A DNA stretch of 64,000 nt from an uncultured Gammaproteobacteria bacterium (lineage in GTDB: Bacteria; Patescibacteriota; Patescibacteriia; UBA2196; GWA2-42-15): positions 3,362-67,361 of the forward strand of contig CAZNIO010000005.1 in NCBI GenBank assembly GCA_964573135.1, read 5' to 3'. The notes beneath the pieces are model-generated. The model was not told where the DNA came from and did no database searches. It saw only the letters and a program-made list of their open reading frames with translations. Within the stretch, counting starts at the first letter, position 1, and every line of letters begins with the position of its first letter. A program made the position numbers and the translations under genes. Below, in pieces: positions 8,505 through 61,698 of this stretch.

Positions 8505-8507
8505 ATA

Positions 8508-34407: not shown

Positions 34408-35112
34408 TTAATTCTTAAGTTCTTTTCTGATTACTCCCTCAATTTCCTCTTGGCTAGCCGCAAAATCTATCACACTTTTACCAATAAATAAATATGGGGT
34501 AGCATCTACTCCTAACCTCTGTCCGTCTTCCAGGCCTTGACCAACTTTTTTAATATACTTTTGTGTCTCTAGACAACTATTAAATAATTGTAAATCTAAA
34601 TCCAATTCAAGAGCCAACTGATTATACAGTTCTCGTGACAATTGGTCTTGATTAACAAAAAGATAATCATGATACTGCCAAAATTTACCCTGCTCTTCTG
34701 CACACCTAGATGCCAATGCCGCCAACCTCGCTTGGGGATGTGATGGATTTGGAAAATCTTTCCAAACTAATCCAACTTTCCCATCAAATTTAGCTAATAT
34801 ATTTATTAAAGACTCTTGAATCTGTGAGCAATAAGGACACTCAAAATCTCCAAATTCTAAAATTAACAATTCAATCCCCTGATCACCACGTAATGGGTCG
34901 TCTTCCCCTACAAGCGCCAAATAAACATCTTCTGCAGAGGTGACTAAAGGGTCTATCTGCTGTTGATTATCCTGAACTTCCTCGCTAGACGGCTGTATTA
35001 TATTTATGTCCTCCCCGCCGTCCCAAAATGACATCATCATCCAAATAAAAAAAACACCTACCAGCAAAACAATTGAAACCGTTATAAATGTTACTACAGA
35101 GGATTTATTCAT
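34408..35112 (-). CDS. DsbA-like thiol:disulfide oxidoreductase, membrane-anchored
   Basis: N-terminal TM. Thioredoxin-fold active site FGDFECPYCSQ. Last gene of the long minus-strand array. Confidence 0.75.
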   Translation of the reverse strand: MNKSSVVTFITVSIVLLVGVFFIWMMMSFWDGGEDINIIQPSSEEVQDNQQQIDPLVTSAEDVYLALVGEDDPLRGDQGIELLILEFGDFECPYCSQIQESLINILAKFDGKVGLVWKDFPNPSHPQARLAALASRCAEEQGKFWQYHDYLFVNQDQLSRELYNQLALELDLDLQLFNSCLETQKYIKKVGQGLEDGQRLGVDATPYLFIGKSVIDFAASQEEIEGVIRKELKN

Positions 35113-35116
35113 ATAA

Positions 35117-36427
35117 CTATCTTAATCTTAAATAATATAATTTATTAGTAAAGGCGTCCCAGAAATAAAGTCGGCTGCTATCATCCGTTATAAATATTTT
35201 TTTAACTTGAAAACTATCAATACTCTCAGACAATACAGGATAAGCAACCAGCCGACTCAAGCCAGTTGATAAATCAATTTTATAAAAAACGTCAGCTGAA
35301 TCATTTAATAAATCTGGATAAAAACCAGCACCTTCGGGCAAACTTACCGGCACAGCGCAATACACTGTCTTATTGTCACGTGCAAATACGCATTTGTCCA
35401 CCCATGTTGATAGCCCTAAATTAAAATTATTTCCGCCTATGTTATCCCCTTGCGCATCTGCCACCCAGAGAATTGGATTATAATTATTATCATAATCTAT
35501 CACCTGATAAAGAATTCGATCCCCCTGAGGCGACCATATTCCTTTAAAATTTGACCCTTCAACCACCAATGATTTATTATTCTCATCATTCAAACCAATA
35601 AAAAACACTTCTTCCTTGTTCAATCCTACTGATTTATGATACAAAGCAACAACTTCGTTAGTTGGTGACCAACTAACCTGCACACTGTCTCCCTGATCGC
35701 CCAAATGCTCTACCGCCTCAGTTTTACCACCAGTATCATCTGCTATTAGCAACCAGTTGTCCTCATCATTATCACTTATATATTTATATGCAATCCCCTC
35801 AGAATTATTACGCCAGCTAGGATCAGTCATACCTTGAGGCAAACTTATCTGCTTACCTGAAGCTAAATCATATATGATATTAGCTCCATCTGGATATTCA
35901 AGAATGACTTTTCTATTATCAGGCGAAAAATATGCATCTTCAACATGCGGAAACTCTTTGTCAGACAAAAGCGTTTTACCAGAGCCATCAAGAGAAATGC
36001 GATAAAATTTATCATCTTCAATACTCAAATAGCTAAGGCTACCTTGACCTAAATTAACATCAGCTAACTCATCCTCCATTACTCCAGTGACCTGGGTTAA
36101 AGATCCGCTAGCCACGTTATCAACCTTGCCTTCCACCTCAAAATCAGTAATTAAACCATCTTCTTCTCCTTGACTACCTGGCTCTCCAGGTAGTTGACCG
36201 GGTGGGCTAATAAGTCCAATAACGCCACCAACCCCAGTGCCAGGCAACTCACCACCAACTCCTACAGCCACATCGCCTCCAGCAGGGGCGTCTTCCGCCG
36301 GTTGTCGAAAAAATACCAACCACAAAACACCAATTATCAAACCAACTCCAATAATCAAAATCAAACCCCCTAAAATTATTCTCTTATAATCCAAATTAGG
36401 CATGTATTTAATATTATTTCCACTCAA
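35117..36427 (-). CDS. Membrane-anchored extracytoplasmic protein with Gly/Pro-rich linker and PD40/TolB-like beta-propeller repeats (tentative)
   Basis: N-terminal TM. Linker GVGGELPGTGVGGVIGLISPPGQLPGEPG. Repeated S(W)SPD/SPQ-type blades (YFSPDNRKVILEY, SWSPTNEVVALYH, IWSPQGDRILYQ). Confidence 0.45.
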   Translation of the reverse strand: MSGNNIKYMPNLDYKRIILGGLILIIGVGLIIGVLWLVFFRQPAEDAPAGGDVAVGVGGELPGTGVGGVIGLISPPGQLPGEPGSQGEEDGLITDFEVEGKVDNVASGSLTQVTGVMEDELADVNLGQGSLSYLSIEDDKFYRISLDGSGKTLLSDKEFPHVEDAYFSPDNRKVILEYPDGANIIYDLASGKQISLPQGMTDPSWRNNSEGIAYKYISDNDEDNWLLIADDTGGKTEAVEHLGDQGDSVQVSWSPTNEVVALYHKSVGLNKEEVFFIGLNDENNKSLVVEGSNFKGIWSPQGDRILYQVIDYDNNYNPILWVADAQGDNIGGNNFNLGLSTWVDKCVFARDNKTVYCAVPVSLPEGAGFYPDLLNDSADVFYKIDLSTGLSRLVAYPVLSESIDSFQVKKIFITDDSSRLYFWDAFTNKLYYLRLR

Positions 36428-36998
36428 TACTATCCACTAGCCACTCATCTTGCGCCCTTGTCATGGACACAAGCGCATTCTGATTGTATAAAGTAGTTTT
36501 ACCTTGATCGACCCTCTCTCTTCTCGTATAAACCAAAATATTAATATTTGAACCACTACTATTTAAGGTTTCAAGCTTAAAAGCCTGAGTGGTTATTCTT
36601 TCTTGGCTATCTTTACCCGAATTTCTTTCAATAAAATCATCAGCCCAAACTTTCATGCGATATGTCATCATTCCCCTTAATTCAGTAATATTTAGAAAAC
36701 CAGATTCAGGAGAATAACTACCAAGCATCTCAACAAAAAACTTAGCCCTGTTCTTAGCTACCACCTCTCGCTTGTCAAAATCCGACAGTTCTTTTTCTTC
36801 TTCATTCTTTTGTTCCTCGTCTCTAGCCGGAGGCAGTAAGCTACCACCAGGCTGATCATTCAAATTGATATCATTCAGCTTCTTAATTGGATTCTCTTGA
36901 CTGCCCTCTCTGTTAATTAAAAAATATCCTCCCACTCCAAGGAGTATAATAACCACAACAACCACTAGCGCTATAATAAACAACTTTTTTTTATCCAT
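36414..36998 (-). CDS. Bitopic membrane protein (possible VirB8-like position, function unknown)
   Basis: 194 aa. Single N-terminal TM then ~160-aa extracytoplasmic domain, immediately downstream of the VirB4-like gene. Placement by position and topology only. Confidence 0.3.
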   Translation of the reverse strand: MDKKKLFIIALVVVVVIILLGVGGYFLINREGSQENPIKKLNDINLNDQPGGSLLPPARDEEQKNEEEKELSDFDKREVVAKNRAKFFVEMLGSYSPESGFLNITELRGMMTYRMKVWADDFIERNSGKDSQERITTQAFKLETLNSSGSNINILVYTRRERVDQGKTTLYNQNALVSMTRAQDEWLVDSIEWK

Positions 36999-37015
36999 AA
37001 ATTTCTAGTTTAAAA

Positions 37016-38908
37016 TTATTTCATCTTCCCTTCTCCTTCTTCTTTGTCAAACTCATCTTTAGCCTCCTCAATCTCAAGTAACTGCCGAGGATCTGAGGTT
37101 ATTATCTGGTCTTCGGTATATGATGCCACTACTTTAATTGCTACATGCTTAGACCCAGCAAAAAATATTCCCTCTCCCACACCTGATTCAAGTAATAAAT
37201 ATCTTTCACCCTGAGTTAACATAAACGTCTTAGAAACTACATCAATAGCAGCGGTTGATTGTCGCAATAACAACTGAATAGCCGAATTGGTTACAATCGC
37301 CTTTCCATATGGCGAATTTAAAAAATCGTTCACATCTTGAGTAATAGTAGTTAGTCCAAGATAATACTTACGGCACCTCTTAGCTAAAGCAAAAAGAAAT
37401 TTAGCACTATCTTCATACTGCATCAGCCACCAAGCTTCATCTACCACCAAAACTCTTTTCTTGAGTTCACTCCTTACAATATTCCATATATAATTAACAA
37501 TTGTATAAATAGCTATCGGTCGCAGCTCATCTTCCAAATCCCTCACAGAAAACACAACCAACTGATTAGCTACGTTAATATTGGTTTTATGATTCAATAA
37601 TCCAGAAAACGTACCTTGGGTATACTTACCCAATCTTTGAGCAACTGCATGCCCTCCCTCCATACCTTCGAGCACTTGTTCTAAATCAGACAAAATAGGA
37701 GGATCAACCTGTGATAAATCTGATCCAGGCGTAATATCATTTTTTGCATAAGTTTCAAGCAAAGCTTTATCAAGTAATGAATCTTCCTCATGGCTCAATT
37801 CGCCAACCATTAGCCGAACCAATCCTTTAACTGTAATAACAGCAGAACGTATAATATCCCCAGTTTTCTCCCCCTCCATCAAATTAGCCGGTAAATCAAA
37901 AGGATTAATTTTACTTTCAGAGCTTAAGGCAATATTAATATATGTTCCGCCAACCGCCTCGGATAAATACTGATATTCCCTTTCTGGATCAATAATAATT
38001 ACATCAGTGCCTTGCATCATTGAGCGCAACACCTCTAATTTGATAGCATAACTTTTACCAGCTCCAGACGTAGCAAAAACAACTGTATTGGCATTTTGTA
38101 AACTAAAACGATCAAACAAAATTAAACTATTATTATGTCGATTAATGCCATAAAGTATTCCATTATCTGAAGTTAGTTCTGATGACACAAAAGGGAAAGT
38201 CGAGGCAATCGGCGATGTATTCAAATTTGTATAGACCTGTAACTCATCACGGCCTAACGGCAACGTAGAATTAAACCCTCGCTCTGTTTGCCAAATAGCC
38301 CGTCTGGTATAAACTAGTTTCGAATTAATAGTTGATTCTATCCATTCCATGGCCTCTTCTAACTCTTTTTCAGAATCTGTATAAACAGTTAGATATAAGC
38401 CAAACTGGAAAAAATGTTCAACACCTTGAGTTAAGTCATCCCTTAATTTCTCAATGTCTTGATAAGCTGTCTCTTGCAAAGGATCTCTGGGCGCGCCTTT
38501 CTCTCGATCTGCCATAATTTGAGCGCCAACAGAACCAATTTTTTTCTTTAATTGCTTAAGCACGACCCCAGAAACTATAGGAAAAAAATACATAGATATA
38601 TCCATGGTAAAACTCGAATCAACCAACGAGTCAAACCAACCAACGGAGATATAACGAGGATAAGTGGTCACAAAAATAGTTGACACAAACTTACCATTGA
38701 GTTCCAAAAAGGTCGATTCAACCCGCATAGCCGCAGGCGCCATCAAGTCTTTTAATGTTACCACTCCTCGCTGATAAATTCGCTGGGCTTCTAAAATTTC
38801 TTTCTCTTGCTCAATTTGCACCTCTTCATTAACTGGGGCAACCTGGCTAGCCGGTACTTCTTCTTTTTTACCCGTCGTTTGTTTTTTTATTTCTGCCGGA
38901 TTAAACAT
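37016..38908 (-). CDS. VirB4/TrbE-family type IV secretion ATPase
   Basis: Walker A FATSGAGKSYAIK. IIDPEREY motif. Walker B LVVDEAWWLM. C-terminal RKYYLGLTTITQDVNDF. 630 aa. Confidence 0.85.
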   Translation of the reverse strand: MFNPAEIKKQTTGKKEEVPASQVAPVNEEVQIEQEKEILEAQRIYQRGVVTLKDLMAPAAMRVESTFLELNGKFVSTIFVTTYPRYISVGWFDSLVDSSFTMDISMYFFPIVSGVVLKQLKKKIGSVGAQIMADREKGAPRDPLQETAYQDIEKLRDDLTQGVEHFFQFGLYLTVYTDSEKELEEAMEWIESTINSKLVYTRRAIWQTERGFNSTLPLGRDELQVYTNLNTSPIASTFPFVSSELTSDNGILYGINRHNNSLILFDRFSLQNANTVVFATSGAGKSYAIKLEVLRSMMQGTDVIIIDPEREYQYLSEAVGGTYINIALSSESKINPFDLPANLMEGEKTGDIIRSAVITVKGLVRLMVGELSHEEDSLLDKALLETYAKNDITPGSDLSQVDPPILSDLEQVLEGMEGGHAVAQRLGKYTQGTFSGLLNHKTNINVANQLVVFSVRDLEDELRPIAIYTIVNYIWNIVRSELKKRVLVVDEAWWLMQYEDSAKFLFALAKRCRKYYLGLTTITQDVNDFLNSPYGKAIVTNSAIQLLLRQSTAAIDVVSKTFMLTQGERYLLLESGVGEGIFFAGSKHVAIKVVASYTEDQIITSDPRQLLEIEEAKDEFDKEEGEGKMK

Positions 38909-38984
38909 AAAATCACATTAATATTTTAATATCTAAACACAATACTTAAAATTCAATATTCTATAAACACATCAACACACTAAA

Positions 38985-39668
38985 TTATTCCACATTTAAT
39001 TTACCAACATCAGTCATCTTTTGTCTTTTTGCAACCTCTGGGTTGTAAGTATTATAATACAGCTCTATCAAGCCTTGTGTATCAAGAAGCTGACTATTGA
39101 TCATCATACTAGATAATCCTCCTTGAACAACATTAACCCTTCTATCAATCTCTTGTTTGTATTTTAAAAATTGTTCTTTTTTTAAACCAATTGTCTTAAC
39201 TGCCTTAAAAGAATTAAAAAGCTTGCCGACCTTGCCTTGTTTCTTTTCGCCCTCTTGCGGATTATATGGAATCACTACATAAAATCTCTTTGATACAATA
39301 TCCCCCATCTCAACAAGATCTGCCACATATTTTCGATATTCACGAATCTGTATCTTTAAAAGTTCATTTGTTTGTTCTTTTTCTTTAGATTTCATTTCTT
39401 CCAAATATTTAGAAATATCTAAAGTCCTTGACTGTATTAATATTTGTACAGGAAAACTAATTGAATTAATAAAGGACATGTAGCCCTGAATAATAGCATT
39501 TTGTTCCTCTTCTGATTTCAACGCAAAATTTATGGAAGACGCTAAAAGCACAACAACCAAAGTATTATCTTTCATCACAACTGTGCTATCATGAATTTCC
39601 GCAATATCAATATATTGCTGGGTGGAAACTCTAAAATCACTCTTTTTCTTTTTTGTTTTTTCTGCCAT
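38985..39668 (-). CDS. Hypothetical cytoplasmic protein between the PrgI-like gene and VirB4
   Basis: 227 aa, K/E-rich, no TM. Confidence 0.4.
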   Translation of the reverse strand: MAEKTKKKKSDFRVSTQQYIDIAEIHDSTVVMKDNTLVVVLLASSINFALKSEEEQNAIIQGYMSFINSISFPVQILIQSRTLDISKYLEEMKSKEKEQTNELLKIQIREYRKYVADLVEMGDIVSKRFYVVIPYNPQEGEKKQGKVGKLFNSFKAVKTIGLKKEQFLKYKQEIDRRVNVVQGGLSSMMINSQLLDTQGLIELYYNTYNPEVAKRQKMTDVGKLNVE

Positions 39669-39685
39669 AAATATTAATTAATTGA

Positions 39686-40114
39686 TCAACCCTCATACCG
39701 ACCACCAGTATCAACCATCAATGCCAACTCAGCCAATCGCTGAGAGCTAGTAACCTTCTTTTTTGGCCCAATATCAGATTTAATTTCTCGTACATTTTCT
39801 TCTTCCTGCAATTTAGCTAAATCAGCCTGAGTTACCTGCTTGTGCCATACACGCACCTTAGGTCTTTTAATTGCCTCAATCATGCTACTTACAAATTGAG
39901 AAAAATTACGACCATTAACTTTCACAAATCCAAATACAATAATAAAAACTACGACAATAAAAGTTATCAAAGCGAATGCGCCAGTATCCAATAATTTAAA
40001 TGAACCAAAACACACTATCCCCCCAATTACCATCATTATAAACTGTCTAGTGGTAATAGGGCCAATAATTCTATCCTCAACATTTATAAATTGTGGTGCT
40101 ACAAATCTATCCAT
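39686..40114 (-). CDS. PrgI/VirB3-like small membrane protein
   Basis: IIGPITTRQFIMMVIGGIVCFGSF followed by a second TM, resembling the PrgI-family signature (GLTLRQF + TM hairpin). Located just upstream of the VirB4-like gene. Confidence 0.5.
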   Translation of the reverse strand: MDRFVAPQFINVEDRIIGPITTRQFIMMVIGGIVCFGSFKLLDTGAFALITFIVVVFIIVFGFVKVNGRNFSQFVSSMIEAIKRPKVRVWHKQVTQADLAKLQEEENVREIKSDIGPKKKVTSSQRLAELALMVDTGGRYEG

Positions 40115-40119
40115 AAAAA

Positions 40120-41094
40120 TTAATATGCTAATTTTCTATTTAAATCCGCAATAACATCAAATTCTTCTTTAGTTAAATATGGCTTACCCTCCTCTTTATA
40201 CTTATCAATAACGTCACTCACTGTCTTCCCTTCTGCCATACTAGTGGCTCCAAGCGTCAAATATACCCTATAAGTACCTGATTTTTTCCAGGCTTCAATA
40301 CCTTCTGCTTTTTTAGATACCGACTCATCCTCGAGTAAATTAATTTTCTGCAAAATTCTATCTGTCGCTTCATCTGGATTTTTTCCCATTTTGCGAAAAT
40401 ATTCAAGGGTCAATCCTTGTATTTCTTCAACTGCCCCTGTACTTTGATGTGAAAAAATATCTCTCTCTTCTTTATATAAATTCCGATGTTCATCATGTAC
40501 TACACTTTTCTTCTCCACTTTAGCCGGCTCTGCCTTTACTGGCAAAACCTGTTTTTTATCTTCTTCCACCAAAAGACCCTTTCCTCCACTCAAGATAGCT
40601 TCTTCAACTTTCCTTCTCTCAATCTCAATCAAGCTTATCACCTTACTTTGTGCTTCCTGATCTAACCCAACCCCACCAAGTTCAACAGCCTTAATCAATG
40701 CTTCCCTGGTATCAGCCAACCCTCGTACATTTCTAAATCTAGAAATAATAATATTACGTAAATTACGCGTTCTCATCTCCTCTCCATCAACCCCAGATTG
40801 TTCAACTATTTGGACTGCCAATTTCTCAATAAATTGAGAAATTGCCCGATTACCATCAACCACAGGTGCCTCAGTAATTTTCTTTACTTCTTCCTCGTCA
40901 TCAATCGAAAAATAAAAACCAGCTTGAGTGCTCCCAGGTTTAGTTATTTCCACTGGTGTATGAGGGATAATATCATCTTGGCGCACTATTACATCGTCTT
41001 CTTTTAAATCAATCAAATGATTATCCTTTAACAATTTAAAATCACCCTCACGGGTCTTAACTACAATTCCATTTTGTAAATCTTCTTTGAGCAT
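40120..41094 (-). CDS. Hypothetical acidic cytoplasmic protein
   Basis: 324 aa, no TM, E/K-rich. Confidence 0.4.
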   Translation of the reverse strand: MLKEDLQNGIVVKTREGDFKLLKDNHLIDLKEDDVIVRQDDIIPHTPVEITKPGSTQAGFYFSIDDEEEVKKITEAPVVDGNRAISQFIEKLAVQIVEQSGVDGEEMRTRNLRNIIISRFRNVRGLADTREALIKAVELGGVGLDQEAQSKVISLIEIERRKVEEAILSGGKGLLVEEDKKQVLPVKAEPAKVEKKSVVHDEHRNLYKEERDIFSHQSTGAVEEIQGLTLEYFRKMGKNPDEATDRILQKINLLEDESVSKKAEGIEAWKKSGTYRVYLTLGATSMAEGKTVSDVIDKYKEEGKPYLTKEEFDVIADLNRKLAY

Positions 41095-41153
41095 AAATTA
41101 GCTAAATTAATTATACCAAATATCAACAATTCCGCCTAAATTCACCTGCTTTT

Positions 41154-47453: not shown

Positions 47454-47767
47454 ATACTTAATGGTCCATCTCCCCCAAAAAGAGAGTAAACAGAGCTAAT
47501 AGCCTGGACTGATGGAAGATAGCATGCTCCATAGGCAAGAAATACAATAAAAGCAACTAAAACCCCCACACCAAATAATACCAAAGCATAAGCTAATATT
47601 AAAACCAATCCCTTATTTTCTTTCCCTAATTTAGCCCAAGAAAAAATATTAGTTCCACCAGATAAAGCAATCCCAGCAACCGCCTTAGCTGTCTCTTTCT
47701 TTTTTTTTATACTAGCATTTTTTTTCTTATTTTGATTATCATTTTTCGGCATAAAATTATTACTCAT
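47438..47767 (-). CDS. Small K-rich membrane protein (one long TM), possible pilin/VirB2-like candidate
   Basis: 109 aa. Lys-rich N-terminus, 28-aa hydrophobic span, short C-terminal tail with Cys. Overlaps neighbours on both sides. Confidence 0.35.
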   Translation of the reverse strand: MSNNFMPKNDNQNKKKNASIKKKKETAKAVAGIALSGGTNIFSWAKLGKENKGLVLILAYALVLFGVGVLVAFIVFLAYGACYLPSVQAISSVYSLFGGDGPLSICSDL

Positions 47768-53000: not shown

Positions 53001-55905
53001 ATTCTACTATAATATCCTGCCCATCCCAATTATCAGTTCGTGCCCTAAAACTAATAATATAATCCTTGCCAGCCTTAACCTCTTTAGCCAAACCCGTGAG
53101 CACAACACCTGGAAATGGCTGATCCTTATCAAGATCAACTTGCAATACTCGATTAGAAGTATTTCTTTCATCAATCACATTTAAAATATACTTATCAATA
53201 TTATTATAAGCTGACCATGGTCTAGTAGTACCATCTTCAAAATTAAAATTAGCAATATTAACTGGTACACCAGCTTCTGTCATACTACTATATGGATAAT
53301 TCCCCCGTATTTTAGCTTCAACACACTGGCCTTCGCCACACACGCTCTTGACTGATTGGCACGTCTCTAAACGGCAATCTCGATTAGAGGTACACGCTCC
53401 ATGACTGATGACACCCCCGCAATAACCACAAATTGATCCAGTATTACTACATCGATATCCCCAATCTAACCCCGCCTTAGAATAACCAGATAAATTAGCG
53501 ATGGATTCTGCATCGCCAGGATGCTGACGGGTTAGCTCGTTAGTTGATGAGTCAACACTATGTGCACAACCACCAGCCTCATCTAGTTCATCACACAATC
53601 CAACAGAAAAACACACTTCTTCATTACCTGGCTTTTGTCCCACTTGAAAAATTTCTGTATTCTGTCTTGGCACTTCAACATAAGCATTACAATATAGCCA
53701 CGTGTCACACGTCCTATCAGGATCAACCCGTAAAATAATATTAGAGTCCGGCGAAGATAACTCATCATCAGTTGTAAAAGTTAATACCTTAAAATCACAA
53801 GTAGCAGAAGAGGAGCATCCACCGCCAGCAGTCCGGTTTAGAGTCTCTTTTGTGGTATGCGAACTTATAACAACCCTATAATCTGTATCATCTAAAAGAC
53901 CTGTTAGTTTTACCTCGTGTCCTGATACTAACTCTGCCTTTTTTATCTCCGCATATTCTCCACCTGAAGGCCTATAATAAACAACAGTATTTGATAATCC
54001 ATTTTTGTTTATACCCTTTCTTGTCCACCATGAAACCACCGCACTATTAGCCTTAATTTTACTTTTAGGAACAATATGATCATAAATCTCCAACTTATCA
54101 ATTTGTACCGCTGTAAATTCACCACTCACAGGCGGAGTCAAGGATGTGAGCCCAGAACCACTAGCTCCATTACATATAATAGTATAATTATAAGCCTGAC
54201 CGGACGTTAACCCAATTACCTTATAACTATGAACTGTACTTGCGCTACTATCAATTGAAGGCGCTACCTGTCCACCCACCACATTCAATCTACAAATAGC
54301 ATCTAAGTTCGTCGAAAAACCGGCAGTGGCTGCTGTCTCACTTACTGTTATGTTTACCTGTCCATCTATAACTATCTCTTTTTTAATAATTTTATATATT
54401 CCTTCACCTTTACTAGAAATCAGCACTACATCATTACCGCTCTTTATTTGCGTACCATTCTCAAAAGTTATTTTAGTTGAATCAATTTCCACAAATTTCG
54501 CTCCAAAATCCATATCAGCCAATTTAACTTCCCCTGTTCCCCCTGTATATCCTCGTAATTTAATAGTTACTTTTCCACTACCAGCACTTTCCTCCGCAAC
54601 GCTATTAGCAATACTACTATTTACATCTAATCTATTATCACTCATGCTCCAGTGGCTATTAGTATAATCTAAAACCACATCAATATCTGTTACATTTGAA
54701 TTATTATTATTCAAAATTAATTCAATAGGTAAAGTTGTCCCAGCATTTACCGTCACCCGCGAAGGTGAAAGTAAAAGTGCTGCCGTACCAGGTGGCGGAG
54801 TAAAACAGTCTCGCGTACAACATCTATGAATTTCACTTAACCACATACTGCCAGGACACATCTCGTCTTGACTACAAATTTTTTCAGATGCACAAGTTAA
54901 ACACGCTTCCTCACAACACTCATTTATCTCATCCATCCAATTATTCTCAGGGCACAATTCATTCTGATCACATATATTATCTACAGAACATACAAAACAC
55001 GTCTGTCCACAACACCTAGTTGCTTCATCTAACCAAGTATTTACAGGGCACAATTCATTTTGCGCACAAACGTCTCCTGTGCAAACCACAGGTGGCTCAC
55101 AAGCCACCGCGCAACACCTCGTAGTCTCGTCCTCCCAATTATTACAAGTCTCCACCGAATTACACAACTCTCCGGAACAACCCTCCTCGCCTCCACCGCC
55201 GCCTCCCCCATCACAACTCAAGGTGATATCATAATTACCACCGCTACCGTCCACGGAATAATCCACACCTAATACAATCCCAGTCTCTTCCATGCCGAAA
55301 CCAGATGTCTGCTCCGACGCATCCCCTGATTGATTACCAAAAAACCTCATTTGAGTACTGCCACTCGCGCTTGGAGCCACTGTCACATTTAAAATTGCTA
55401 ACAACCTATTATCCTCATTCAGAGGTGACGAGGAAGCGCGTACTACCTGAATCAATCCCGCACCATCATCCACGAATTCAAGCGCATCTCCTCCTATACC
55501 ATAATGAGACAAACTACTATCAATAGATATATTACTAAATTTAGATGAGTCGTATGATATAAAAGAACCAGCAGTTATCACACCAAAACCATTCTGATTT
55601 GAATGATTAGCCGGATTAACATCTGTCATAATCCTAATAGAATAAGTTTGCCCACACTTCATCGTTCTATCCTCAATCTCCTGCCCCATCCCATCAGTTA
55701 ACCTCATCACTGGATCGCCAGATACAGCCAAAGCAAAAATTAATCCTAAAGCAAGCACTATTACCAACAAGGGCAACATAAAATATATCACCTTCTTTTT
55801 AGGAGACATCCATTTTATTTTCTGTTTCAACCTAAACCACCTTGAAGTCTTATATACCTCAAGGCTCTCAGGTGTTTGGCTATTCACATCGTTAACCTCT
55901 GGCAT
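50008..55905 (-). CDS. Giant (1965 aa) membrane-anchored surface protein: cohesin-like N-terminal domain, four tandem Cys-rich ~33-aa modules, Ig-like/beta-rich regions, C-terminal PKD-like domain
   Basis: N-terminal TM anchor. Poly-Gly then modules CxxxxCxxxELCPxNxWxDExxxCCxxxC repeated four times (aa ~265-370; DNA ~54798-55113). C-terminal ...FGDNDSYETT...THSYPLAGIYFASLTITDHGGNELTSDEIEIVV resembles PKD. Confidence 0.7.
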   Translation of the reverse strand: MPEVNDVNSQTPESLEVYKTSRWFRLKQKIKWMSPKKKVIYFMLPLLVIVLALGLIFALAVSGDPVMRLTDGMGQEIEDRTMKCGQTYSIRIMTDVNPANHSNQNGFGVITAGSFISYDSSKFSNISIDSSLSHYGIGGDALEFVDDGAGLIQVVRASSSPLNEDNRLLAILNVTVAPSASGSTQMRFFGNQSGDASEQTSGFGMEETGIVLGVDYSVDGSGGNYDITLSCDGGGGGGGEEGCSGELCNSVETCNNWEDETTRCCAVACEPPVVCTGDVCAQNELCPVNTWLDEATRCCGQTCFVCSVDNICDQNELCPENNWMDEINECCEEACLTCASEKICSQDEMCPGSMWLSEIHRCCTRDCFTPPPGTAALLLSPSRVTVNAGTTLPIELILNNNNSNVTDIDVVLDYTNSHWSMSDNRLDVNSSIANSVAEESAGSGKVTIKLRGYTGGTGEVKLADMDFGAKFVEIDSTKITFENGTQIKSGNDVVLISSKGEGIYKIIKKEIVIDGQVNITVSETAATAGFSTNLDAICRLNVVGGQVAPSIDSSASTVHSYKVIGLTSGQAYNYTIICNGASGSGLTSLTPPVSGEFTAVQIDKLEIYDHIVPKSKIKANSAVVSWWTRKGINKNGLSNTVVYYRPSGGEYAEIKKAELVSGHEVKLTGLLDDTDYRVVISSHTTKETLNRTAGGGCSSSATCDFKVLTFTTDDELSSPDSNIILRVDPDRTCDTWLYCNAYVEVPRQNTEIFQVGQKPGNEEVCFSVGLCDELDEAGGCAHSVDSSTNELTRQHPGDAESIANLSGYSKAGLDWGYRCSNTGSICGYCGGVISHGACTSNRDCRLETCQSVKSVCGEGQCVEAKIRGNYPYSSMTEAGVPVNIANFNFEDGTTRPWSAYNNIDKYILNVIDERNTSNRVLQVDLDKDQPFPGVVLTGLAKEVKAGKDYIISFRARTDNWDGQDIIVELAPDRDGGTGGYIPFTYYDFNEIDPLVSPVKKKVRLEPYWQEFIMRVNGPVDYGGSSNLNKLNVAFVSGDIKANMDTFYLDNVSMKGALQIGDDLNFISRSCRLYPRENAPACDYYDEDEGKDYKGWKGYCVEPDPGWTDRQYTSQPMCLQWWPVDVVRGESNVFGVDDVAGYTGRKPLYYCLEAAGNYKRENVDLGACSPQMTCGGNKTREVCNTKSGCEWVSRRESDNNILETEDRQSYISPYESGEYRVTYEYPVTIMDRNVGEASYIFWNFDGSRLNRSEILGVRLHTNGSGSQWNLSGSLLNAKSDGPLGMNETAPRGGESNKMGYTGYFWEGNTWVFQYNEGEREGEDIFSDTYLDCGNDNDGKIGNFLGMKLSFYEDTGDLYEIYFKECDDPSDSGDGTDKATLSLTFYLSEPCLKIAQVVDLDGFNAAWLKRLNSGNVDDPSWVGYTKGDDYMLFGSIIPPDPVEDPSIWTSAIYVEPADKTMGEVSPYQPRAGGAYGLIRGNCVTSVCEKYSLSNPPPEFFGPATCVSGSKIGQPCRNGREDCELDIVTGKYGLCVGISASQVYFNDISEDDEFDKLNSLVVGQGGNDLINTDLVLRPMNLSKGEYNLSKIFAKSFDVWEWKFDNTSGIHRYRYVKMNNRDNYDLTDYYGSPPQVKNILINNSNFLDRTIFIEGTAVLKFDSFVNPNQIPLVRYTVDWGDDEKSTEAGLRIAGRDMSNPHILVHHYKYDASDPACDDTLGKCEFNIRIQLEDNWGQGRDEWHEPLMRVVVYKEKRAIENPPILSLDQSELVFTAINDGAVDDNDQIINISNNGEGVLVWSVREDVAWMTIDPMGGKDDEPIVVTVAGISGMSVGNHSGELRILSNGGTATIPVTLVIRAANQPPVILPVIPDNGLVIQDFVASPILGVAPLTVNFDADVFVSVGEYPMLVFLDFGDNDSYETTIADDIDSHILRTHSYPLAGIYFASLTITDHGGNELTSDEIEIVVR

Positions 55906-55911
55906 AGTTGC

Positions 55912-56544
55912 CTAATTAATTAAAAAATTTAAATCCATTAAGTCAAGATTCATCAAAGTTGCCTGCCCATCATCAACTGCCACTTGAGTCTCCTGATTAT
56001 CAAGCCAGACTCTTGCCTCACCAGATTCTAGAGCGCGTAAAACAACGCTACTCAAAATACCATCACTCCCAGTATATCCGTCATCACTATCATCCACGTT
56101 ATTATCCCCTGGCTCACCTCTCACAATCTCCACATACCCATCTTCTTTGTTCTCAATGGCTCCAATAGATAAAACTGAATTTTCACTGTCCACTTCAACT
56201 ACCTCCCATTTACTCTTATCGTAATTTAATCTAATATTAACCGCTACTATATTTGTACCCAAAGTATCAAGCAAAACATTAGCTACTATCTCATCCCCAA
56301 CCTTCACTTCATTAACCATCGACTCTAAGTACATTTTACCCGCATAATCGCCAACTGGCTCTTGCTTATCATCAACTACAACTACCTCTACCTCTTCTTG
56401 CGGTTTATTAAAAATTAATATACCACCGATAACAATCAGGATAATAAGGACAATCAAACCAGGAATCCATACCTTTTTATTCTTCAACATGCCACAGCAC
56501 TTCTTCTCCTCCACTTCCCCCTCTTTTTTTTCTAAATTTTCCAT
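55912..56544 (-). CDS. Membrane-anchored cohesin-like domain protein (tentative)
   Basis: N-terminal TM. Beta-rich domain VKVGDEIVANVLLDTLGTNIVAVNIRLNYDKSKWEVVEVD resembling cohesin type folds. Confidence 0.4.
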   Translation of the reverse strand: MENLEKKEGEVEEKKCCGMLKNKKVWIPGLIVLIILIVIGGILIFNKPQEEVEVVVVDDKQEPVGDYAGKMYLESMVNEVKVGDEIVANVLLDTLGTNIVAVNIRLNYDKSKWEVVEVDSENSVLSIGAIENKEDGYVEIVRGEPGDNNVDDSDDGYTGSDGILSSVVLRALESGEARVWLDNQETQVAVDDGQATLMNLDLMDLNFLIN

Positions 56545-56566
56545 ATAATTATATATTAATTAAAAA

Positions 56567-59500
56567 TTAATTTGCTATCGGCATTGGCACGTTATAGCTG
56601 CAAATACCACTCAATTGACGATTAAATACCTTACAATCATTAATTGTCCGACAAGTCCTCCCCCATATATTACTACAAGTATTTGTCTTTGAATTGCAAC
56701 TACCAGTCTCGCCAGAAGCCACACAGTCACTATCCATCTCACACGGCTGATAAGGCGAAATAAAATTAGAACAATGCTTAGTACTAAAATATTTAAAATC
56801 TCCTCCGCCAACTTCATTAAATGGCAAACATCCTTTGCTTGGATCAACAGTGGTACAAGTATCCAGCGTATTGCTTAGATAATAATAATAATCGCAATAA
56901 GGATCCACGCCATATTCTCCATAAACAGATAATTTATCACATCCCTTAGGTCTTGAACGATCTTGAAATTCAGTACACGTATCCTGACCTACAGGGCAAG
57001 TGGCCGTCCAGCCACTGCATAATCCAGGAGAAGTTCCACGCGCATAATCTGCACACTCATCATTGCTTGAACACACATTCTCATTTACTCCCCCCAAATT
57101 ATTATTTGGCATACTTCTACCGCCCATGCAGTACCCTTCTTCACCGCCAAATACAAAGGGACAAAATTCAAGAGTTCCTATCTTATACCATGCATAACTA
57201 TTGTTATCATCTTTCTTGTACTCACACTCTTTACCATGAGGGTCTTCAAAATATTCCAATGCTCCAGAACTATCCATAAATTCATCACACCACATCTTAT
57301 CTGATGTGCATAAAGGACTTCCAGGAGTAGAAAAATCGTCTGGATCAACTATCATATATTTTGTTTCATAACTTATATAGCCGCTCAAACCAGAAACATC
57401 TGGCCACATCATACCAAGGGACATGCACCCATTGGTCGTACATTTCTTGCTTTCATCATAAACAATATATTCCAAAGAATCAGCTAAAACTGTAACTAAA
57501 CCATATGTTTCCCCTTCATGATTACTAGAATTTTTTGTATCAATCATTGGCTCACATCCGACCACCTCATCTCTGCATAATCCATCAAATGATTTTAGAT
57601 AAACTTCTCTATTTCTCATATCCTTATATTTCTCACAACCCACCATAGATCCTTCTGCTGGCTCATCACACGAGTCAGGCGTAACCCACGAATCACGAAT
57701 TAAATACAGGCTATCTTGAGTTTCAGTTAAGACAATGTTGTCGATATAAAATCCACTACCAGAATCAAGCATAATAGATAAAAGTTCTTTGCCCATCAAG
57801 TCTCTATCCAAGCTCTTTATATCAAACATATAGAATCCCCAATCTTCAGTTAAACTCACATCAGTTGACCCTTCAAATTCAGGATTACCAGTAAAAGAAA
57901 CTTCGCTAATTACTGCCGCTGTCTCAGCTCGTGCCCAAAATGATATTCTGTATGCTCGTCCCTGCTCTATAGCTCCAGTCACGTCTTTGGCAATACCATA
58001 AGTTGAAAACAAAGAATGACCACCCACTATTAAAGAGGTATTATCAGGCGTTCCGCCCTCCCAGTCTTGCTTAGTACCGTCTTCAAAATCATCATACAAT
58101 AAATTCGTCGTATTATTGCTCTTACTTCCCTTGTATTCTCGACAACCAACCGATCTAGCACCACACGTATCGCTTTGAGATAAAATAGCAGCATAATATG
58201 TCTGATCCTCTGTTCTGCGTAACAAAGTACAATCCTTAGAAGCAAAAACCACTTTTGACTGCTCAATCTTATACTTACTACCGCTTAAATCAGTAAACTC
58301 AATGCATTCTGGACTATAATCAATATCACCCACATTAGTTGAACAGCTATCAATACTTGTATCAGCACAAGTCACCTCGCCATTTGCCGTCGTTATTGGA
58401 TTTGTACATGGAGCATCACCCAAATTAGATTTAAGCAAAGACCAACTACGTAATCTATTTCCTCCCACTTTTTCCGTTGACTCCCAAGTATAATAGACGC
58501 TCACTCCAGATTCACCTGGACCCACACATGCTCGCAAATATGAATAATTTTCTATTCGTTCTCCCTCAATTCCCTCTGATAAATTAGTAAATTCTTCACA
58601 CCCCACATCAGCTGCCGGACAAGTCGAAGCCGTTGTATCAATTAAATTAACAAATTCATCAGTTGCCTCTGGTGGATCAAAAAATGTAGTTTTCTCAACA
58701 TATGTCTTATACCCAACACATTCACCGGGACACTTGTCGTCTTCTACCACAACTCCAGGCACGTCTGGACCCAAATATGATATTGGTTTATAAAACTCAC
58801 AATTAGCATCGCTTGAATTACAATACAAAGCATAACTTGCACACTCAAGAACCCCACTCTCCACACATGCCTGTATATCCTCACGCCACAAATAACCTGC
58901 CATCTGACAACCCTCTTCATCCTGCGCAACACCCTCAGCAACATCAGTAAATCCCTGGCAACTCAAATAGCTAGGAGCTTTACGCAAATTAATAGGATAA
59001 ACGGACTCATAAACTTCAATAGCACTAAATGTACCGGCCACTACTGCATCTAGATCAGCTTGTGACCCTATCCTATAAAATAAGCTACATCCTTCTTCCT
59101 CGGGAGAGCACTCCTTATCACTTGCATTTCGATTTAAATACTTTCTTTCGTTGTTTGGATCATCGCAACCCCACCCTCCATTATCCACATCAAAATAAGC
59201 ACAATATTCACGACACCCGGCATTAGAAGCATCACACGCCCCATCACTTCTACCCCGCAGAGTATTTGTTAAATAATTAACCTGTCCCCCAGCTCTTGTA
59301 GTAAATGATTTACATGTGTTATAAACCGCTGAACATTCTGTACCGTGTATATCCCAAACTGATTTTTCCTCAACACAATAACCATAGAAATCACATCGAG
59401 AACCATCTGCACTTTCCTTAATACAAGCCCTCTCATCAGCACAATACTCAGAGTTCCTATACACTACCATTTTGTCCTCATCGCGAGGATCGACATGAGT

Positions 59501-61060
59501 AGATACAACATGTTCGCCAGACCCTTCTCTGCGACACACAGTTTCCGGCACTTTAACTACCCAGCTTGGATCAACTAATTTATAATATGGCGACTGTGGA
59601 TTGTTATAATCATTAATTAATTTACTTAAAGTTAAAGGCCCCCCTGAATTATCAAATTGCCTAAAATATTCTGCAGCCAACTCCCAACCAACTGGTATTA
59701 TCCTATATTTGCGCATAATAACTAAGGAACGATACGAATATATCCGTTCACCAGCATCCTCTATCCCGCCTGTCTTGTCAGCCCGATAACCAAAATCCCA
59801 GTTACCATGTAAAAAATCTTCGTCCAATGCCTGACGAACAGTTAAAGGTGGCTCTTGCAAAAGAGCCGTCTCAAGCGATTGATCAACAGTACACGCATAC
59901 TGGCTTACTTCATTATTACAACTCAAACTATTAACTACATCATAGGGGCCACTAAAAACATAATCTGGCCTACCTAGATCAGCATATATCTCCTCAGCTG
60001 CTGCTCGTCCACTAGCTTTTAACAAGCTCAACCCTGACAAGCCAGGAATATTTGAAATATTTTTTCCATTTCCATCAGGATTAAACCCACGTTTAAAAAT
60101 ATTACTTATTACCCTGCTGGTCAAAGTATTAGTAAATATACCGATAGCGTCAGCTGCAGCCTCCCCTGTATATATCCCATAAGGAATAAGTGACTGATCA
60201 ATCCAAGAAACAGCTCGTGAGCTATACATTTGTGCTACAGTTATTGTATTACCACTCACTTTACTAGTTTTAGACTTAAACTCACCCTCAGCAGTTTTCT
60301 TCAATTTAAGAACCTCCAAAACATCAAACTTTTTCTGATGAGCCCCCGATATAATGGTTAAAGTTTGCCCCAATTCATTGCCAGAAGGGTTAAAAAAAGA
60401 AGAAAATTCAACTAGCTGACTGATATTTAAATGCTCAAGGTCTTTAATATTTTTCAAAATAGTTTTCCAACTACACCTAGGTGGCCCAGGCGCCCACACT
60501 CTTCTAGCCGTTGTCTCAACACGCACCTTAGCCAAAGGGTTTAAGGGCTTGCATAAATCTTTACCCCACATTCTACCGATTGTATTATTTAAATAGTCAC
60601 CCACTGCCCCTTGCCATTCATCATCAATAAGTTTTTTCCAGTTAGTCTCAATCGCTGGTTTTTGACCGTTTATATCAGTAGCAAGATCAATGGCTCCCTG
60701 ATAAGCAATACGAGATAACATCCTTTGTAAAGCATTCTTATATGCTATAGCGCCCACCTTCTTAAAAGCATCTTTAAATTTCTGCCACAAACTTGTTTTA
60801 ATTTTATCCACATAAGTTATTCCCATCTCCTGCATTTTTAACTGCGTTAACGGAATATCCATAACAGGAGTAAAAGGAAGAAATTGAGCATTGGCAACCG
60901 ATCTAAGCTCAACACGATCTCCGCCCTCTTCTTTCATCAATACACTAGGCGACACAAAAAACACTCCCAAACTAGAAAACACAAAAATCAAAAAAAACCA
61001 AACAGCCAAAGCTCTTTTTATATTTCTGGTCTTTTTTAATTTTTTAATATAGTCCAGCAT
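56567..61060 (-). CDS. Giant (1497 aa) Cys-rich secreted/membrane-anchored surface protein
   Basis: N-terminal signal anchor. More than 90 Cys spread across the ectodomain, no catalytic motifs recognised. Confidence 0.65.
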   Translation of the reverse strand: MLDYIKKLKKTRNIKRALAVWFFLIFVFSSLGVFFVSPSVLMKEEGGDRVELRSVANAQFLPFTPVMDIPLTQLKMQEMGITYVDKIKTSLWQKFKDAFKKVGAIAYKNALQRMLSRIAYQGAIDLATDINGQKPAIETNWKKLIDDEWQGAVGDYLNNTIGRMWGKDLCKPLNPLAKVRVETTARRVWAPGPPRCSWKTILKNIKDLEHLNISQLVEFSSFFNPSGNELGQTLTIISGAHQKKFDVLEVLKLKKTAEGEFKSKTSKVSGNTITVAQMYSSRAVSWIDQSLIPYGIYTGEAAADAIGIFTNTLTSRVISNIFKRGFNPDGNGKNISNIPGLSGLSLLKASGRAAAEEIYADLGRPDYVFSGPYDVVNSLSCNNEVSQYACTVDQSLETALLQEPPLTVRQALDEDFLHGNWDFGYRADKTGGIEDAGERIYSYRSLVIMRKYRIIPVGWELAAEYFRQFDNSGGPLTLSKLINDYNNPQSPYYKLVDPSWVVKVPETVCRREGSGEHVVSTHVDPRDEDKMVVYRNSEYCADERACIKESADGSRCDFYGYCVEEKSVWDIHGTECSAVYNTCKSFTTRAGGQVNYLTNTLRGRSDGACDASNAGCREYCAYFDVDNGGWGCDDPNNERKYLNRNASDKECSPEEEGCSLFYRIGSQADLDAVVAGTFSAIEVYESVYPINLRKAPSYLSCQGFTDVAEGVAQDEEGCQMAGYLWREDIQACVESGVLECASYALYCNSSDANCEFYKPISYLGPDVPGVVVEDDKCPGECVGYKTYVEKTTFFDPPEATDEFVNLIDTTASTCPAADVGCEEFTNLSEGIEGERIENYSYLRACVGPGESGVSVYYTWESTEKVGGNRLRSWSLLKSNLGDAPCTNPITTANGEVTCADTSIDSCSTNVGDIDYSPECIEFTDLSGSKYKIEQSKVVFASKDCTLLRRTEDQTYYAAILSQSDTCGARSVGCREYKGSKSNNTTNLLYDDFEDGTKQDWEGGTPDNTSLIVGGHSLFSTYGIAKDVTGAIEQGRAYRISFWARAETAAVISEVSFTGNPEFEGSTDVSLTEDWGFYMFDIKSLDRDLMGKELLSIMLDSGSGFYIDNIVLTETQDSLYLIRDSWVTPDSCDEPAEGSMVGCEKYKDMRNREVYLKSFDGLCRDEVVGCEPMIDTKNSSNHEGETYGLVTVLADSLEYIVYDESKKCTTNGCMSLGMMWPDVSGLSGYISYETKYMIVDPDDFSTPGSPLCTSDKMWCDEFMDSSGALEYFEDPHGKECEYKKDDNNSYAWYKIGTLEFCPFVFGGEEGYCMGGRSMPNNNLGGVNENVCSSNDECADYARGTSPGLCSGWTATCPVGQDTCTEFQDRSRPKGCDKLSVYGEYGVDPYCDYYYYLSNTLDTCTTVDPSKGCLPFNEVGGGDFKYFSTKHCSNFISPYQPCEMDSDCVASGETGSCNSKTNTCSNIWGRTCRTINDCKVFNRQLSGICSYNVPMPIAN

Positions 61061-61092
61061 CTAAGTATATTAAAAATAAATTTTAACTTCTC

Positions 61093-61698
61093 CTATTGAC
61101 TCTGCAATGTCTCTAAATAAAAAGCCATCAAAGTTTCATCATCTATCTGACTCAAATCCTCCTCAGTAACTCCTCCACTCTCAAGTAAAAGTTGTCGCAC
61201 ATCTTCAGCTGTTAAATCTTTTAATTGATCCTTAAGCTCTGGCGTTAATTCCGCCCCTTCCCCTGTATTCTCATCCTCGTATTGGTAATCCTCTACATAG
61301 CCCCCGCTATCATCCACTCTCTGCTCACGACAATTCACGCCTTTGGGACAATTTGGATCATAACCATCATCAACTTCATCTTTGTCTAAATATCCATCAG
61401 AGTCTGTATCCTCCAAATACATCGATGTTTTATAAATATATAATTCTTCAAAATCAGATAAACCATCACCATCTGTATCTGCCACCTGTAATTCCTCCAC
61501 GCTCCTTGCGTCTGTTTCTAAACTGTCGCCATAATCAATCTCATCTCCACTCGGAGCATAATTACCACCCGCTAAATTAATAGTTTTACTCACTTGCAAA
61601 ATACCAAGAACAATAGCCGAAATACCAAAAAAACACAAAGCAATAAACATCACTTTAGTCCATGTATTTTTTGGTGTTTTATTTAAATCATCTGTCAT
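61093..61698 (-). CDS. Membrane-anchored acidic protein with thrombospondin type-3-like calcium-binding repeats
   Basis: TM anchor. DTDGDGLSDFEE and DTDSDGYLDKDEVDDGYDPNCP (DxDxDGxxDxxE). Very acidic C-terminus. Confidence 0.6.
   Translation of the reverse strand: MTDDLNKTPKNTWTKVMFIALCFFGISAIVLGILQVSKTINLAGGNYAPSGDEIDYGDSLETDARSVEELQVADTDGDGLSDFEELYIYKTSMYLEDTDSDGYLDKDEVDDGYDPNCPKGVNCREQRVDDSGGYVEDYQYEDENTGEGAELTPELKDQLKDLTAEDVRQLLLESGGVTEEDLSQIDDETLMAFYLETLQSQ

Follow-up and report, generated by a model that had tools for sequence, protein, structure and literature searches.

We analyzed a 64,000-nucleotide (nt) stretch of contig CAZNIO010000005.1 (GenBank assembly GCA_964573135.1), which is called the window here. 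Its minus strand carries 17 consecutive open reading frames (ORFs), running from position 61698 down to 34408 with junctions of -16 to +128 nt. A reading made before any database search (the original prediction) had described this array as a minimal core related to type IV secretion systems (T4SSs), accompanied by giant Cys-rich surface proteins and a terminal DsbA. The array is indeed unbroken and co-directional. However, the earlier gene list was incomplete, because it left out the ORF at 38985-39668, which encodes a TrsD-like protein of 227 amino acids (aa). The features are listed below in the direction of transcription.

61093-61698, minus strand: membrane-anchored Ca-binding protein, 201 aa, with a transmembrane (TM) helix at 12-40 (Pfam TSP3_bac, 3e-6)
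56567-61060, minus strand: giant 1, 1497 aa, 63 Cys, with an N-terminal signal or anchor and disulfide-rich modules
55912-56544, minus strand: cohesin-domain protein, 210 aa, membrane anchored, TM 20-50 (Pfam Cohesin, 8.7e-8, 32.9 bits, cutoff 24.1)
50008-55905, minus strand: giant 2, 1965 aa, 63 Cys, with an N-terminal anchor and fn3, CBM_4_9, BACON_2, and PKD_4 domains
48863-49921, minus strand: extended VirB2-like pilin A, 352 aa (Pfam PF18895, 2.5e-9)
47760-48848, minus strand: extended VirB2-like pilin B, 362 aa (Pfam PF18895, 2.7e-9)
48145-48558 and 49236-49649, no strand: near-identical direct repeat of ~415 nt (repeat family D1, 96-100% identity)
47438-47767, minus strand: Lys-rich small membrane protein, 109 aa, encoded just upstream of VirB6
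44079-47453, minus strand: extended VirB6-like channel protein, 1124 aa, 0 Cys (homologues and fold)
42662-44065, minus strand: conserved cytoplasmic protein, 467 aa, 0 Cys, always after VirB6
41154-42533, minus strand: protein with SLFN_AlbA_2, HATPase_c_4, and winged helix-turn-helix domains (Pfam; PADLOC)
40120-41094, minus strand: conserved cytoplasmic protein, 324 aa, 0 Cys, always before PrgI
39686-40114, minus strand: PrgI/VirB3-like protein with two TM helices (Pfam PF12666)
38985-39668, minus strand: TrsD-like protein, 227 aa, 0 Cys (NCBIfam matches)
37016-38908, minus strand: VirB4 ATPase, 630 aa, N-domain absent (NCBIfam, Pfam, PDB)
36414-36998, minus strand: bitopic protein, 194 aa, with an N-terminal TM helix and a conserved C-terminal domain of ~115 aa (family alignment)
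35117-36427, minus strand: membrane-anchored protein, 436 aa, probably a beta-propeller (TolB propeller, 1e-4; DPPIV_N, 3e-3)
34408-35112, minus strand: DsbA-like thiol-disulfide oxidoreductase, membrane anchored, last gene (Thioredoxin_4, 8e-22; DSBA, 3.5e-10)
34360-34385, no strand: hairpin, likely a bidirectional terminator, with an 11-pair stem and A and T runs on either side

The array is bounded upstream by ksgA (61775-62572), which points in the same direction. It ends at the hairpin, which separates the convergent recG and dsbA genes and is the sole long-stem terminator-like site within 34000-64000. Co-orientation alone is weak evidence for a functional unit, because a second minus-strand run of 14 genes occupies 6969-22509 and GC skew is negative throughout the window.

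VirB4 scored above the cutoff of the NCBIfam conju_CD1110 family (1e-105, 354.6 bits, cutoff 325), with an alignment that covered profile positions 175-734 of 752. The next-best NCBIfam models were the VirB4 of the Mycoplasma integrated conjugative element (ICE), F-type TraC, and generic VirB4. The protein also matched Pfam P-loop_TraG and AAA_10 and the structure of the VirB4 C-terminal domain (PDB 4ag5, 6e-45), and its best plasmid matches, at 29 to 36% identity, were from plasmids of Bacillota and Actinomycetota, which are monoderm. The overlooked ORF at 38985-39668 matched the Mbov_0397 VirB4 model at positions 92-269 (9e-9), TrsD (5.8e-6), and CD1110 at positions 1-121 (3e-4), all under the curated cutoffs. 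Judged from these matches, it is the VirB4 N-terminal domain encoded as a separate, TrsD-like gene. The VirB4/TrsD split was present in 44 related loci. PrgI exceeded the cutoff for PF12666 (2.5e-11, 44.4 bits, cutoff 27). Therefore, the VirB4 and PrgI/VirB3-like calls of the original prediction were both confirmed.

The 1124-aa protein had been called VirB6/TrbL-like. It has approximately seven TM helices in aa 1-390, followed by a charged, helical cytoplasmic region of ~730 aa. When it was used as a direct query against hidden Markov model (HMM) libraries and PDB sequences, or as a family profile, it returned no match or coiled-coil noise only. However, 10 of 41 homologues matched PF04610 (TrbL), the best at 2.4e-6. 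In an AF2 (AlphaFold2) model, the TM domain had a pLDDT (predicted local distance difference test score) of 80 to 95, and the top four Foldseek matches in the PDB were TrwI/VirB6 of R388 (probability 0.92-0.98, although with weak E-values of 0.07-0.11). Because some of its homologues match TrbL and its top fold matches are TrwI, we accept the protein as a predicted extended VirB6 in the sense of a recent review (PMC12857230). The call therefore stood through homologues and fold but not through a direct HMM match. A helical domain with two small hairpins lies within the cytoplasmic tail at aa ~860-1010 (window 44424-44874; pLDDT ~90), and it is kept in close relatives.

Several companions of this core had no recognizable family. 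The 467-aa and 324-aa proteins had no Pfam, NCBIfam, PADLOC, or PDB (profile) match. We also considered whether they are relatives of each other, but hhalign gave a probability of 1%, and we rejected this. The 109-aa Lys-rich protein had no family matches in Pfam or NCBIfam, and relatives carry an unrelated ORF of ~200 aa at its position. The 194-aa protein occupies the VirB8/PrgL position and has the matching bitopic topology, as the original prediction had proposed. However, a search of the PDB with its family profile and a Pfam scan of 25 family members yielded no VirB8 or TcpC match. Two of the 25 had a marginal match to NTF2_YvbJ (0.034), and a VirB8/PrgL-like bitopic protein with an NTF2 fold has been reported mainly in T4SSs of ABY1 Patescibacteria. 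Taken together, the HMM, homologue, and fold evidence supports a Gram-positive-type, MPF-FATA-related T4SS core with VirB4, VirB3/PrgI, and VirB6, which is the core type originally proposed.

The core is not minimal. Two paralogs had been noticed for their shared core, which is real, but their identity had been missed. Both carry the T4SS_pilin domain PF18895 at roughly aa 100-170 and are VirB2-type pilins with Cys-rich extensions of ~190 aa. Therefore, the system is neither pilus-less nor "minimal." Pilin A has a signal peptide, a two-helix T4SS_pilin core at aa 99-163, and a Cys-rich C-terminal extension of ~190 aa. Pilin B also matched the NCBIfam Mbov_0395 pilin-like model (1e-4). The cores of the two are identical, and the N terminus and distal C-terminal Cys-rich domain differ. 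The DNA encoding both cores lies in the ~415-nt tract, and the array region has no other long direct repeat. The tract contains one exact block of 269 nt and others of 51 and 21 nt. Because the cores are identical and share the 269-nt exact block, their DNA suggests recent gene conversion between the pilin genes, possibly with a cassette-like exchange of variable tips. The repeat may also be a collapsed or chimeric assembly artefact. In F-type pilins, C-terminal additions are surface exposed.

More pilins are encoded nearby. A contig identical to the window (L087; 0 mismatches over 9 kb) extends its right side by 13.9 kb, to window-equivalent position 77854. In this extension, 8.6 kb upstream of the main array in the same genome, are seven tandem small VirB2-like pilin genes on the minus strand (PF18895, 122-180 aa; window-equivalent ~70341-73616, L087:4239-7514). 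They adjoin a minus-strand Peptidase_M23 gene (window-equivalent ~68416-69672, L087:8183-9439). One of the small pilins (180 aa) carries a short Cys-rich tail at its end.

The head of the array encodes large exported proteins, and the Pfam matches bore out the TSP3, cohesin, and PKD domains named by the original prediction, with BACON_2, CBM_4_9, and PKD_4 all found in giant 2. Giant 1 has a conserved alpha/beta domain at aa ~365-525 and beta-sandwich domains resembling the carbohydrate-binding module (CBM) families CBM22 and CBM4 at aa ~700-1130. Both a beta-sandwich CBM fold and sequence-profile similarity support CBM4/9/22-type modules within the giants. Among sampled giant homologues, CBM_4_9 was found in 9 of 15, Dockerin_1 in 3 of 15, and VWA in 1 of 15; where named, the homologues came from the Patescibacteria group, including Kerfeld- and Buchananbacteria. 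About 35 Cys residues are invariant in the family. Giant 1 corresponds to the N-terminal ~60% of a single giant of 2200-3100 aa in relatives and aligns to residues ~30-1540 of a Falkowbacteria giant. Giant 2 shows weak similarity to the C-terminal portion of the relatives' single giant, and it had no match among PDB sequences. Because the two align to the N- and C-terminal parts of one protein, the giant is split and expanded in the window, with the cohesin gene between the halves, and the related locus L020 has the same arrangement. The N-terminal signal or anchor sequences of the giants point to probable export by Sec rather than by the T4SS.

Two segments of the giants stood out. In giant 1, conservation across the giant family is highest at aa 365-525 (window 59486-59968), where R453, P456, W459, E460, D497, and W500 are invariant. 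Structure prediction gave a confident model of a small alpha/beta domain. At least 1003 cluster representatives contain this segment; it almost always falls at residues ~330-660, and most of the proteins are 2300-3660 aa long. It may have a catalytic role, such as wall hydrolysis. Giant 2 contains four tandem repeats of ~32 aa at aa 231-367 (window 54805-55215), each with six Cys (C-x5-C-x6-C-x12-CC-x3-C), and these had no Pfam match.

The 201-aa protein is encoded by the first gene after ksgA. Its TSP3/EF-hand-like loops, DTDGDGLSDFEE and DTDSDGYLDKDE, are 23 aa apart, and this dockerin-like spacing makes a cohesin-dockerin-type tether to the cohesin protein conceivable. The arrangement recalls cellulosomes in having a cohesin protein, two Ca loops at such spacing, CBM22/CBM4-like modules, and Dockerin_1 in some homologous giants of other genomes. 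It differs in that no glycoside hydrolase domain was detected, the cohesin gene is rare in relatives, and the Ca-loop protein matches TSP3_bac/EF-hand rather than Dockerin_1 in Pfam.

To place these genes in context, we scanned one genome per GTDB species and found 288 relatives of the VirB6-like gene. The best 80 loci were analyzed ORF by ORF with phmmer. All are from metagenome-assembled genomes (MAGs) of Patescibacteria and, where named, from Falkow-, Kerfeld-, and Komeilibacteria (class ABY1). Many of these loci are incomplete, so the counts that follow are lower bounds. Homologues of the VirB6-like protein were found in 80 of the 80 loci, of the 467-aa protein in 61, of the 324-aa protein in 46, of PrgI, TrsD, and giant 1 in 44 each, of VirB4 in 40, of the 194-aa protein in 27, and of the TSP3 protein, at the same position as here, in 26. 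Others were rare: the DsbA and the pilin fusions were each found in 5 of the 80, the cohesin protein in 2 (including L020, which has the same split-giant layout), the propeller in 1, and the Schlafen protein in 0. The conserved order is ksgA, TSP3, a giant of 2200-3100 aa with 3.3-4.4% Cys, an ORF of ~200 aa, the VirB6-like gene, the 467-aa gene, a variable spot, the 324-aa gene, PrgI, TrsD, VirB4, the 194-aa gene, and radA. Many of the related MAG records (L005, L012, L017, and others) are titled Gammaproteobacteria, but their gene content and homologues are Patescibacteria-like and the titles are probably wrong.

Are the giants associated with the T4SS? In 52 loci, the sequence upstream of VirB6 extends for 8 kb or more. 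In 44 of these (85%), a homologous giant is encoded directly upstream in the same orientation as VirB6, and this adjacency, with short gaps, spans several order-level groups. Therefore, the giants appear to belong with the T4SS, as had been proposed. The functional T4SS might instead be only ~11-13 kb long (49921-36414, from the pilins to the 194-aa gene), with the giants, TSP3, cohesin, propeller, and DsbA genes as chance neighbors. Eight of the 52 loci do keep the core without an upstream giant, the DsbA, propeller, and cohesin genes seldom accompany it, and housekeeping S-adenosylmethionine-cycle genes sit inside the operon in some relatives, so adjacency is no guarantee of shared function. 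Even so, we regard the shorter unit as unlikely, given the giant-VirB6 adjacency, the TSP3 gene that travels with the giant in 26 loci, and the short junctions in the window (86, 6, 22, and 32 nt around the giants, TSP3, cohesin, and pilin A genes). The proposal that the 27 kb acts as one unit thus held for the core and giant, whose order is conserved, but not for the Schlafen, propeller, and DsbA genes.

Cys residues are partitioned sharply within the array. There are 63 in each giant and 12 to 13 in each extended pilin, versus 0 to 1 in each cytoplasmic or membrane core protein (0 in the 1124-, 467-, 324-, 227-, and 194-aa proteins). The exported proteins have 3 to 4% Cys. This agrees with the earlier description of the exposed parts as Cys rich. 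The DsbA call was also upheld, with both Thioredoxin_4 (78.6 bits) and DSBA (40.4 bits) above their cutoffs, a CPYC site at aa 92-95, and an N-terminal TM helix. The partition of Cys fits oxidative folding outside the cell by an anchored CPYC DsbA. The window showed neither a DsbB nor a VKOR partner. In related loci, dsbA comes after the 194-aa gene four times and, in L005, after the propeller gene. Therefore, the suggestion that DsbA folds the exposed parts is a reasonable one, but this is not a conserved design. Thiol-disulfide oxidoreductases that serve pilus or T4SS assembly include TraF/TrbB of the F plasmid and MdbA of Actinomyces. Like them, the DsbA here is a membrane-anchored CxxC enzyme with a DsbA/thioredoxin fold, encoded beside Cys-rich exported pilus or surface proteins. 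It differs in that the linkage is found in only 5 of the 80 loci and its substrates are putative.

We then asked whether the array might be an ICE or a decaying remnant of one. Its VirB4, PrgI, TrsD, and VirB6 descend from monoderm conjugation machinery (PMC12102498), and its GC content (0.36-0.41) is slightly above that of the flanks (0.30-0.36). However, no relaxase, type IV coupling protein (T4CP), or integrase was found in the window (positions 1-64000; Pfam scans of all ORFs of at least 90 aa) or in the 13.9 kb beyond its right end (64001-77854; gene tables), and no flanking tRNA or att-like repeat was found at the array. Furthermore, the core genes are all intact and conserved, including the split VirB4, which is not a pseudogene, and the same chromosomal site, from ksgA to radA/recG, is used in many genomes. 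The rest of the window encodes Gmk, an RluD-like protein, a CCA-adding enzyme, a glycosyltransferase cluster, FtsJ, FemAB, a Mur ligase, a ClpB/C-like protein, a ComFC-like protein, TrmB, RecG, and five tRNAs. Because the flanks are housekeeping genes and the position is conserved across related genomes, this is not an ordinary ICE. We reject that reading as highly improbable, in agreement with the original prediction, which had named a relaxase, T4CP, and integrase just outside the window as the finding that would overturn it.

That prediction had also called the locus poorly characterized as a whole, and this was overstated. Relaxase-less chromosomal T4SSs of Patescibacteria have been described (PMC10633639, PMC12102498, PMC12857230). 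In "Ca. Southlakia epibionticum," a Saccharibacterium, Wang et al. (2023) found that the T4SS encoded by SEML1_0006-0019 is essential, includes essential pilins, resembles Gram-positive conjugative systems, and has no recognizable coupling protein or relaxase (PMC10633639). Quinonero-Coronel et al. (2025) placed the VirB4 proteins of Patescibacteria in a clade allied to MPF-FATA, with TrsD as the most frequent partner. They reported that PrgI, VirB6, and arrays of 2 to 11 VirB2 pilins are common, that relaxases are rare, that most T4CP homologues are encoded far from virB4, and that no adhesins were detected (PMC12102498). According to the same survey, ksgA is often nearby, as are comF, recG, and radA in ABY1. 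A 2025 review counts the Patescibacteria systems as a recognized T4SS type (PMC12857230). The window matches this published system, so the T4SS core is not novel; the locus is a Patescibacteria-clade chromosomal T4SS in its ABY1-class arrangement. The locus comes from a Patescibacteria (ABY1-class) genome, in line with the ultrasmall bacteria named in the original prediction.

The locus shares with the Patescibacteria-clade and Southlakia systems a chromosomal location, an MPF-FATA-related VirB4, a separate TrsD-like protein, PrgI/VirB3, VirB6, and PF18895 arrays. It also has in common with them a peptidase close to the pilins, the ksgA, recG, and comF neighborhood of ABY1, and the lack of any relaxase or T4CP in the vicinity. 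It differs in coming from an ABY1 genome rather than Saccharimonadia and in having giants at the operon head, two pilins with Cys-rich extensions of ~190 aa, a giant split around a cohesin gene, a Schlafen insertion, and a DsbA and propeller tail. In searches of open-access text, we found no paper that ties giant proteins, Cys-rich proteins, or DsbA to such loci. Therefore, the conserved giant Cys-rich, CBM-bearing partner and the giant split around a cohesin gene are possibly new.

Other known systems are more distant. The MPF-FATA conjugative T4SSs (CTn2 CD1110, pCF10 prg, pGO1 trs, and the Mycoplasma ICE) gave the top VirB4 score (CD1110) and the matches to TrsD (pGO1 type), PrgI, Mbov_0395, and Mbov_0397, and they too have no outer-membrane core. 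In contrast to them, the system here is fixed in the chromosome and lacks a relaxase, a T4CP, an oriT, and an integrase. Its pilins are of the VirB2 type, which is absent from Gram-positive systems. A PrgB-type LPXTG adhesin is also lacking, and giant CBM-bearing, Cys-rich proteins occupy its position. Extended VirB6 proteins, such as those of Rickettsiales (PMC12857230), also have at least five hydrophobic helices and a large hydrophilic C-terminal region, but the C-terminal 730 aa here have no detectable relative outside Patescibacteria.

The most likely function is a host-contact pilus and adhesin apparatus, which we consider probable from the gene content. VirB4 and TrsD, PrgI/VirB3, and VirB6 would form a membrane machine that builds a pilus or channel of the VirB2 type across the monoderm envelope. 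The pilus shaft is probably made of the small pilins, and the extended pilins probably display variable Cys-rich domains on its surface. The giants, with their CBM-like domains, and the Cys-rich pilin extensions would bind glycans of the host envelope and so hold the epibiont on its host. The anchored DsbA would oxidize the Cys-rich exported proteins, and the cohesin protein with the dockerin-like TSP3 protein may tether the assembly.

A published account calls the function of Patescibacteria T4SSs "completely unknown"; the proposals so far are delivery of effectors and uptake of nucleic acids (PMC11665869). Effector export would mean that the T4SS injects proteins, or that the giants act on the host, so that the host leaks and feeds the epibiont. 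This has been speculated for Saccharibacteria (PMC10633639, PMC11665869). The fold matches of the giants include receptor-binding domains of the Cry, Vip3, and CDTb/Ib toxins, and an M23 peptidase gene adjoins the pilin array. However, the toxin matches cover only generic CBM-like beta-sandwich domains, not pore-forming or enzymatic parts, and neither a T4CP nor a recognizable effector was found in Pfam scans of the window. Because the giants are also probably Sec substrates, we consider effector export doubtful.

Nucleic-acid uptake would make the T4SS an importer comparable to ComB of Helicobacter or Ced of archaea. Host DNA or RNA would then supply nucleotides or material for recombination, and the giants would serve for contact only. 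The Helicobacter pylori ComB system (cited in PMC11665869) is a DNA-uptake T4SS that works without a relaxase or coupling protein; it is diderm and uses VirB2-4/6-10. The locus here likewise has a core with no relaxase or T4CP nearby. It is linked to recombination and competence genes, with recG directly downstream, a ComFC-like gene 4 kb away (29588-30319), and radA following the operon in relatives, a linkage also noted for ABY1 in general (PMC12102498). In Southlakia, the T4CP homologue is nonessential, whereas other T4SS genes are essential. A 2026 preprint described possible T4SS pili at the parasite-host interface and proposed host RNA as food. VirB4 also matched CedB (NCBIfam), although weakly (8e-13, far under the CD1110 score). 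However, the recG/radA linkage may be a mere conserved chromosomal neighborhood, Pfam and NCBIfam revealed no DNA-binding protein or nuclease encoded by the array, no ComEC-like channel is linked, and the direction of transport cannot be read from sequence. ComB also differs in being diderm, and import here is only a hypothesis. We therefore see uptake as the main activity as possible but rather unlikely, whether for nutrition or for recombination.

For the favored host-contact apparatus, we lean toward a T4CP-independent role, in which pilus-based contact is possibly combined with uptake of host macromolecules. We do so because no T4CP is linked, the T4CP is dispensable in Southlakia, and recombination and competence genes flank ABY1 loci. 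A bolder version is that the ABY1 T4SS is physically coupled to a dedicated host-recognition module of CBM giants, a cohesin/dockerin-like tether, and gene-converting pilin tips. This module would serve as the adhesin and set the host range, and the T4CP-less channel would import host macromolecules. We regard this version as speculative and improbable.

Several observations weigh against a dedicated host-contact locus. Promoter- and terminator-like sites occur at background frequency and are not enriched within the array. The rarity of the DsbA and propeller genes, the eight loci with a core but no giant, and the lack of direct matches for the VirB6-like and VirB8-position proteins, together with the weak TrwI E-values, all point the same way. 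In addition, conserved order in small, stable genomes may reflect ancestry rather than function, and the genome may carry a T4CP gene at another site.

This is no new kind of machine, but a giant family that adjoins VirB6 in most of the related loci examined is of interest because the Patescibacteria T4SS is essential in the one species tested. The giants and extended pilins are candidate host-contact parts for a large uncultivated class. If they bind host glycans, they could help to predict host range and guide the cultivation of ABY1 bacteria.

The remaining genes of the array are lineage specific. The propeller call was plausible, but the TolB and DPPIV_N matches are both below their cutoffs. 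A propeller homologue was found only in the closest relative, L005, and the propeller and DsbA genes are lineage-specific tail genes. The SLFN_AlbA_2 call was borne out by Pfam. We considered the Schlafen gene as a part of the T4SS and rejected this, because it was absent from all 80 loci and other cargo occupies the same spot in relatives. It is a lineage-specific insertion, with gaps of 59 and 128 nt around it that are the largest in the array, at the variable spot between the 467-aa and 324-aa genes. In L020, this spot holds a 23S-rRNA-IVP protein gene (L020:14214-14585), and in many Falkowbacteria it holds PfkB-AdoHcyase-MetK-cytidylyltransferase genes (L063:13613-17453). The Schlafen protein also matched the N-terminal module of a PADLOC pAgo model (pAgo-N/Aga-like, 4e-25).

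Beyond ksgA are genes for two AAA_14/DUF4143 ATPases, TruB, S20, and HolA, followed by the Peptidase_M23 and seven pilin genes and then by genes for a solute-binding protein, a nucleotidyltransferase, and an NfeD-type protease. The two paralogous AAA_14/DUF4143 ATPase genes (window 62794-64000; L087:9888-11078) flank the housekeeping block between the T4SS and pilin arrays. On the other side of the array, tandem tRNA-Ser genes (anticodons TGA and GCT; 29331-29514) lie 4 nt apart beside the ComFC-like gene. The mostly minus-strand glycosyltransferase cluster at 5042-20699 encodes four GT2 proteins, a GT1-methyltransferase fusion, PMT_2/DUF2079/PTPS-related membrane proteins, a LAB_N protein, and several unannotated large membrane ORFs; the cluster probably serves the synthesis of cell-surface glycans or the glycosylation of proteins.

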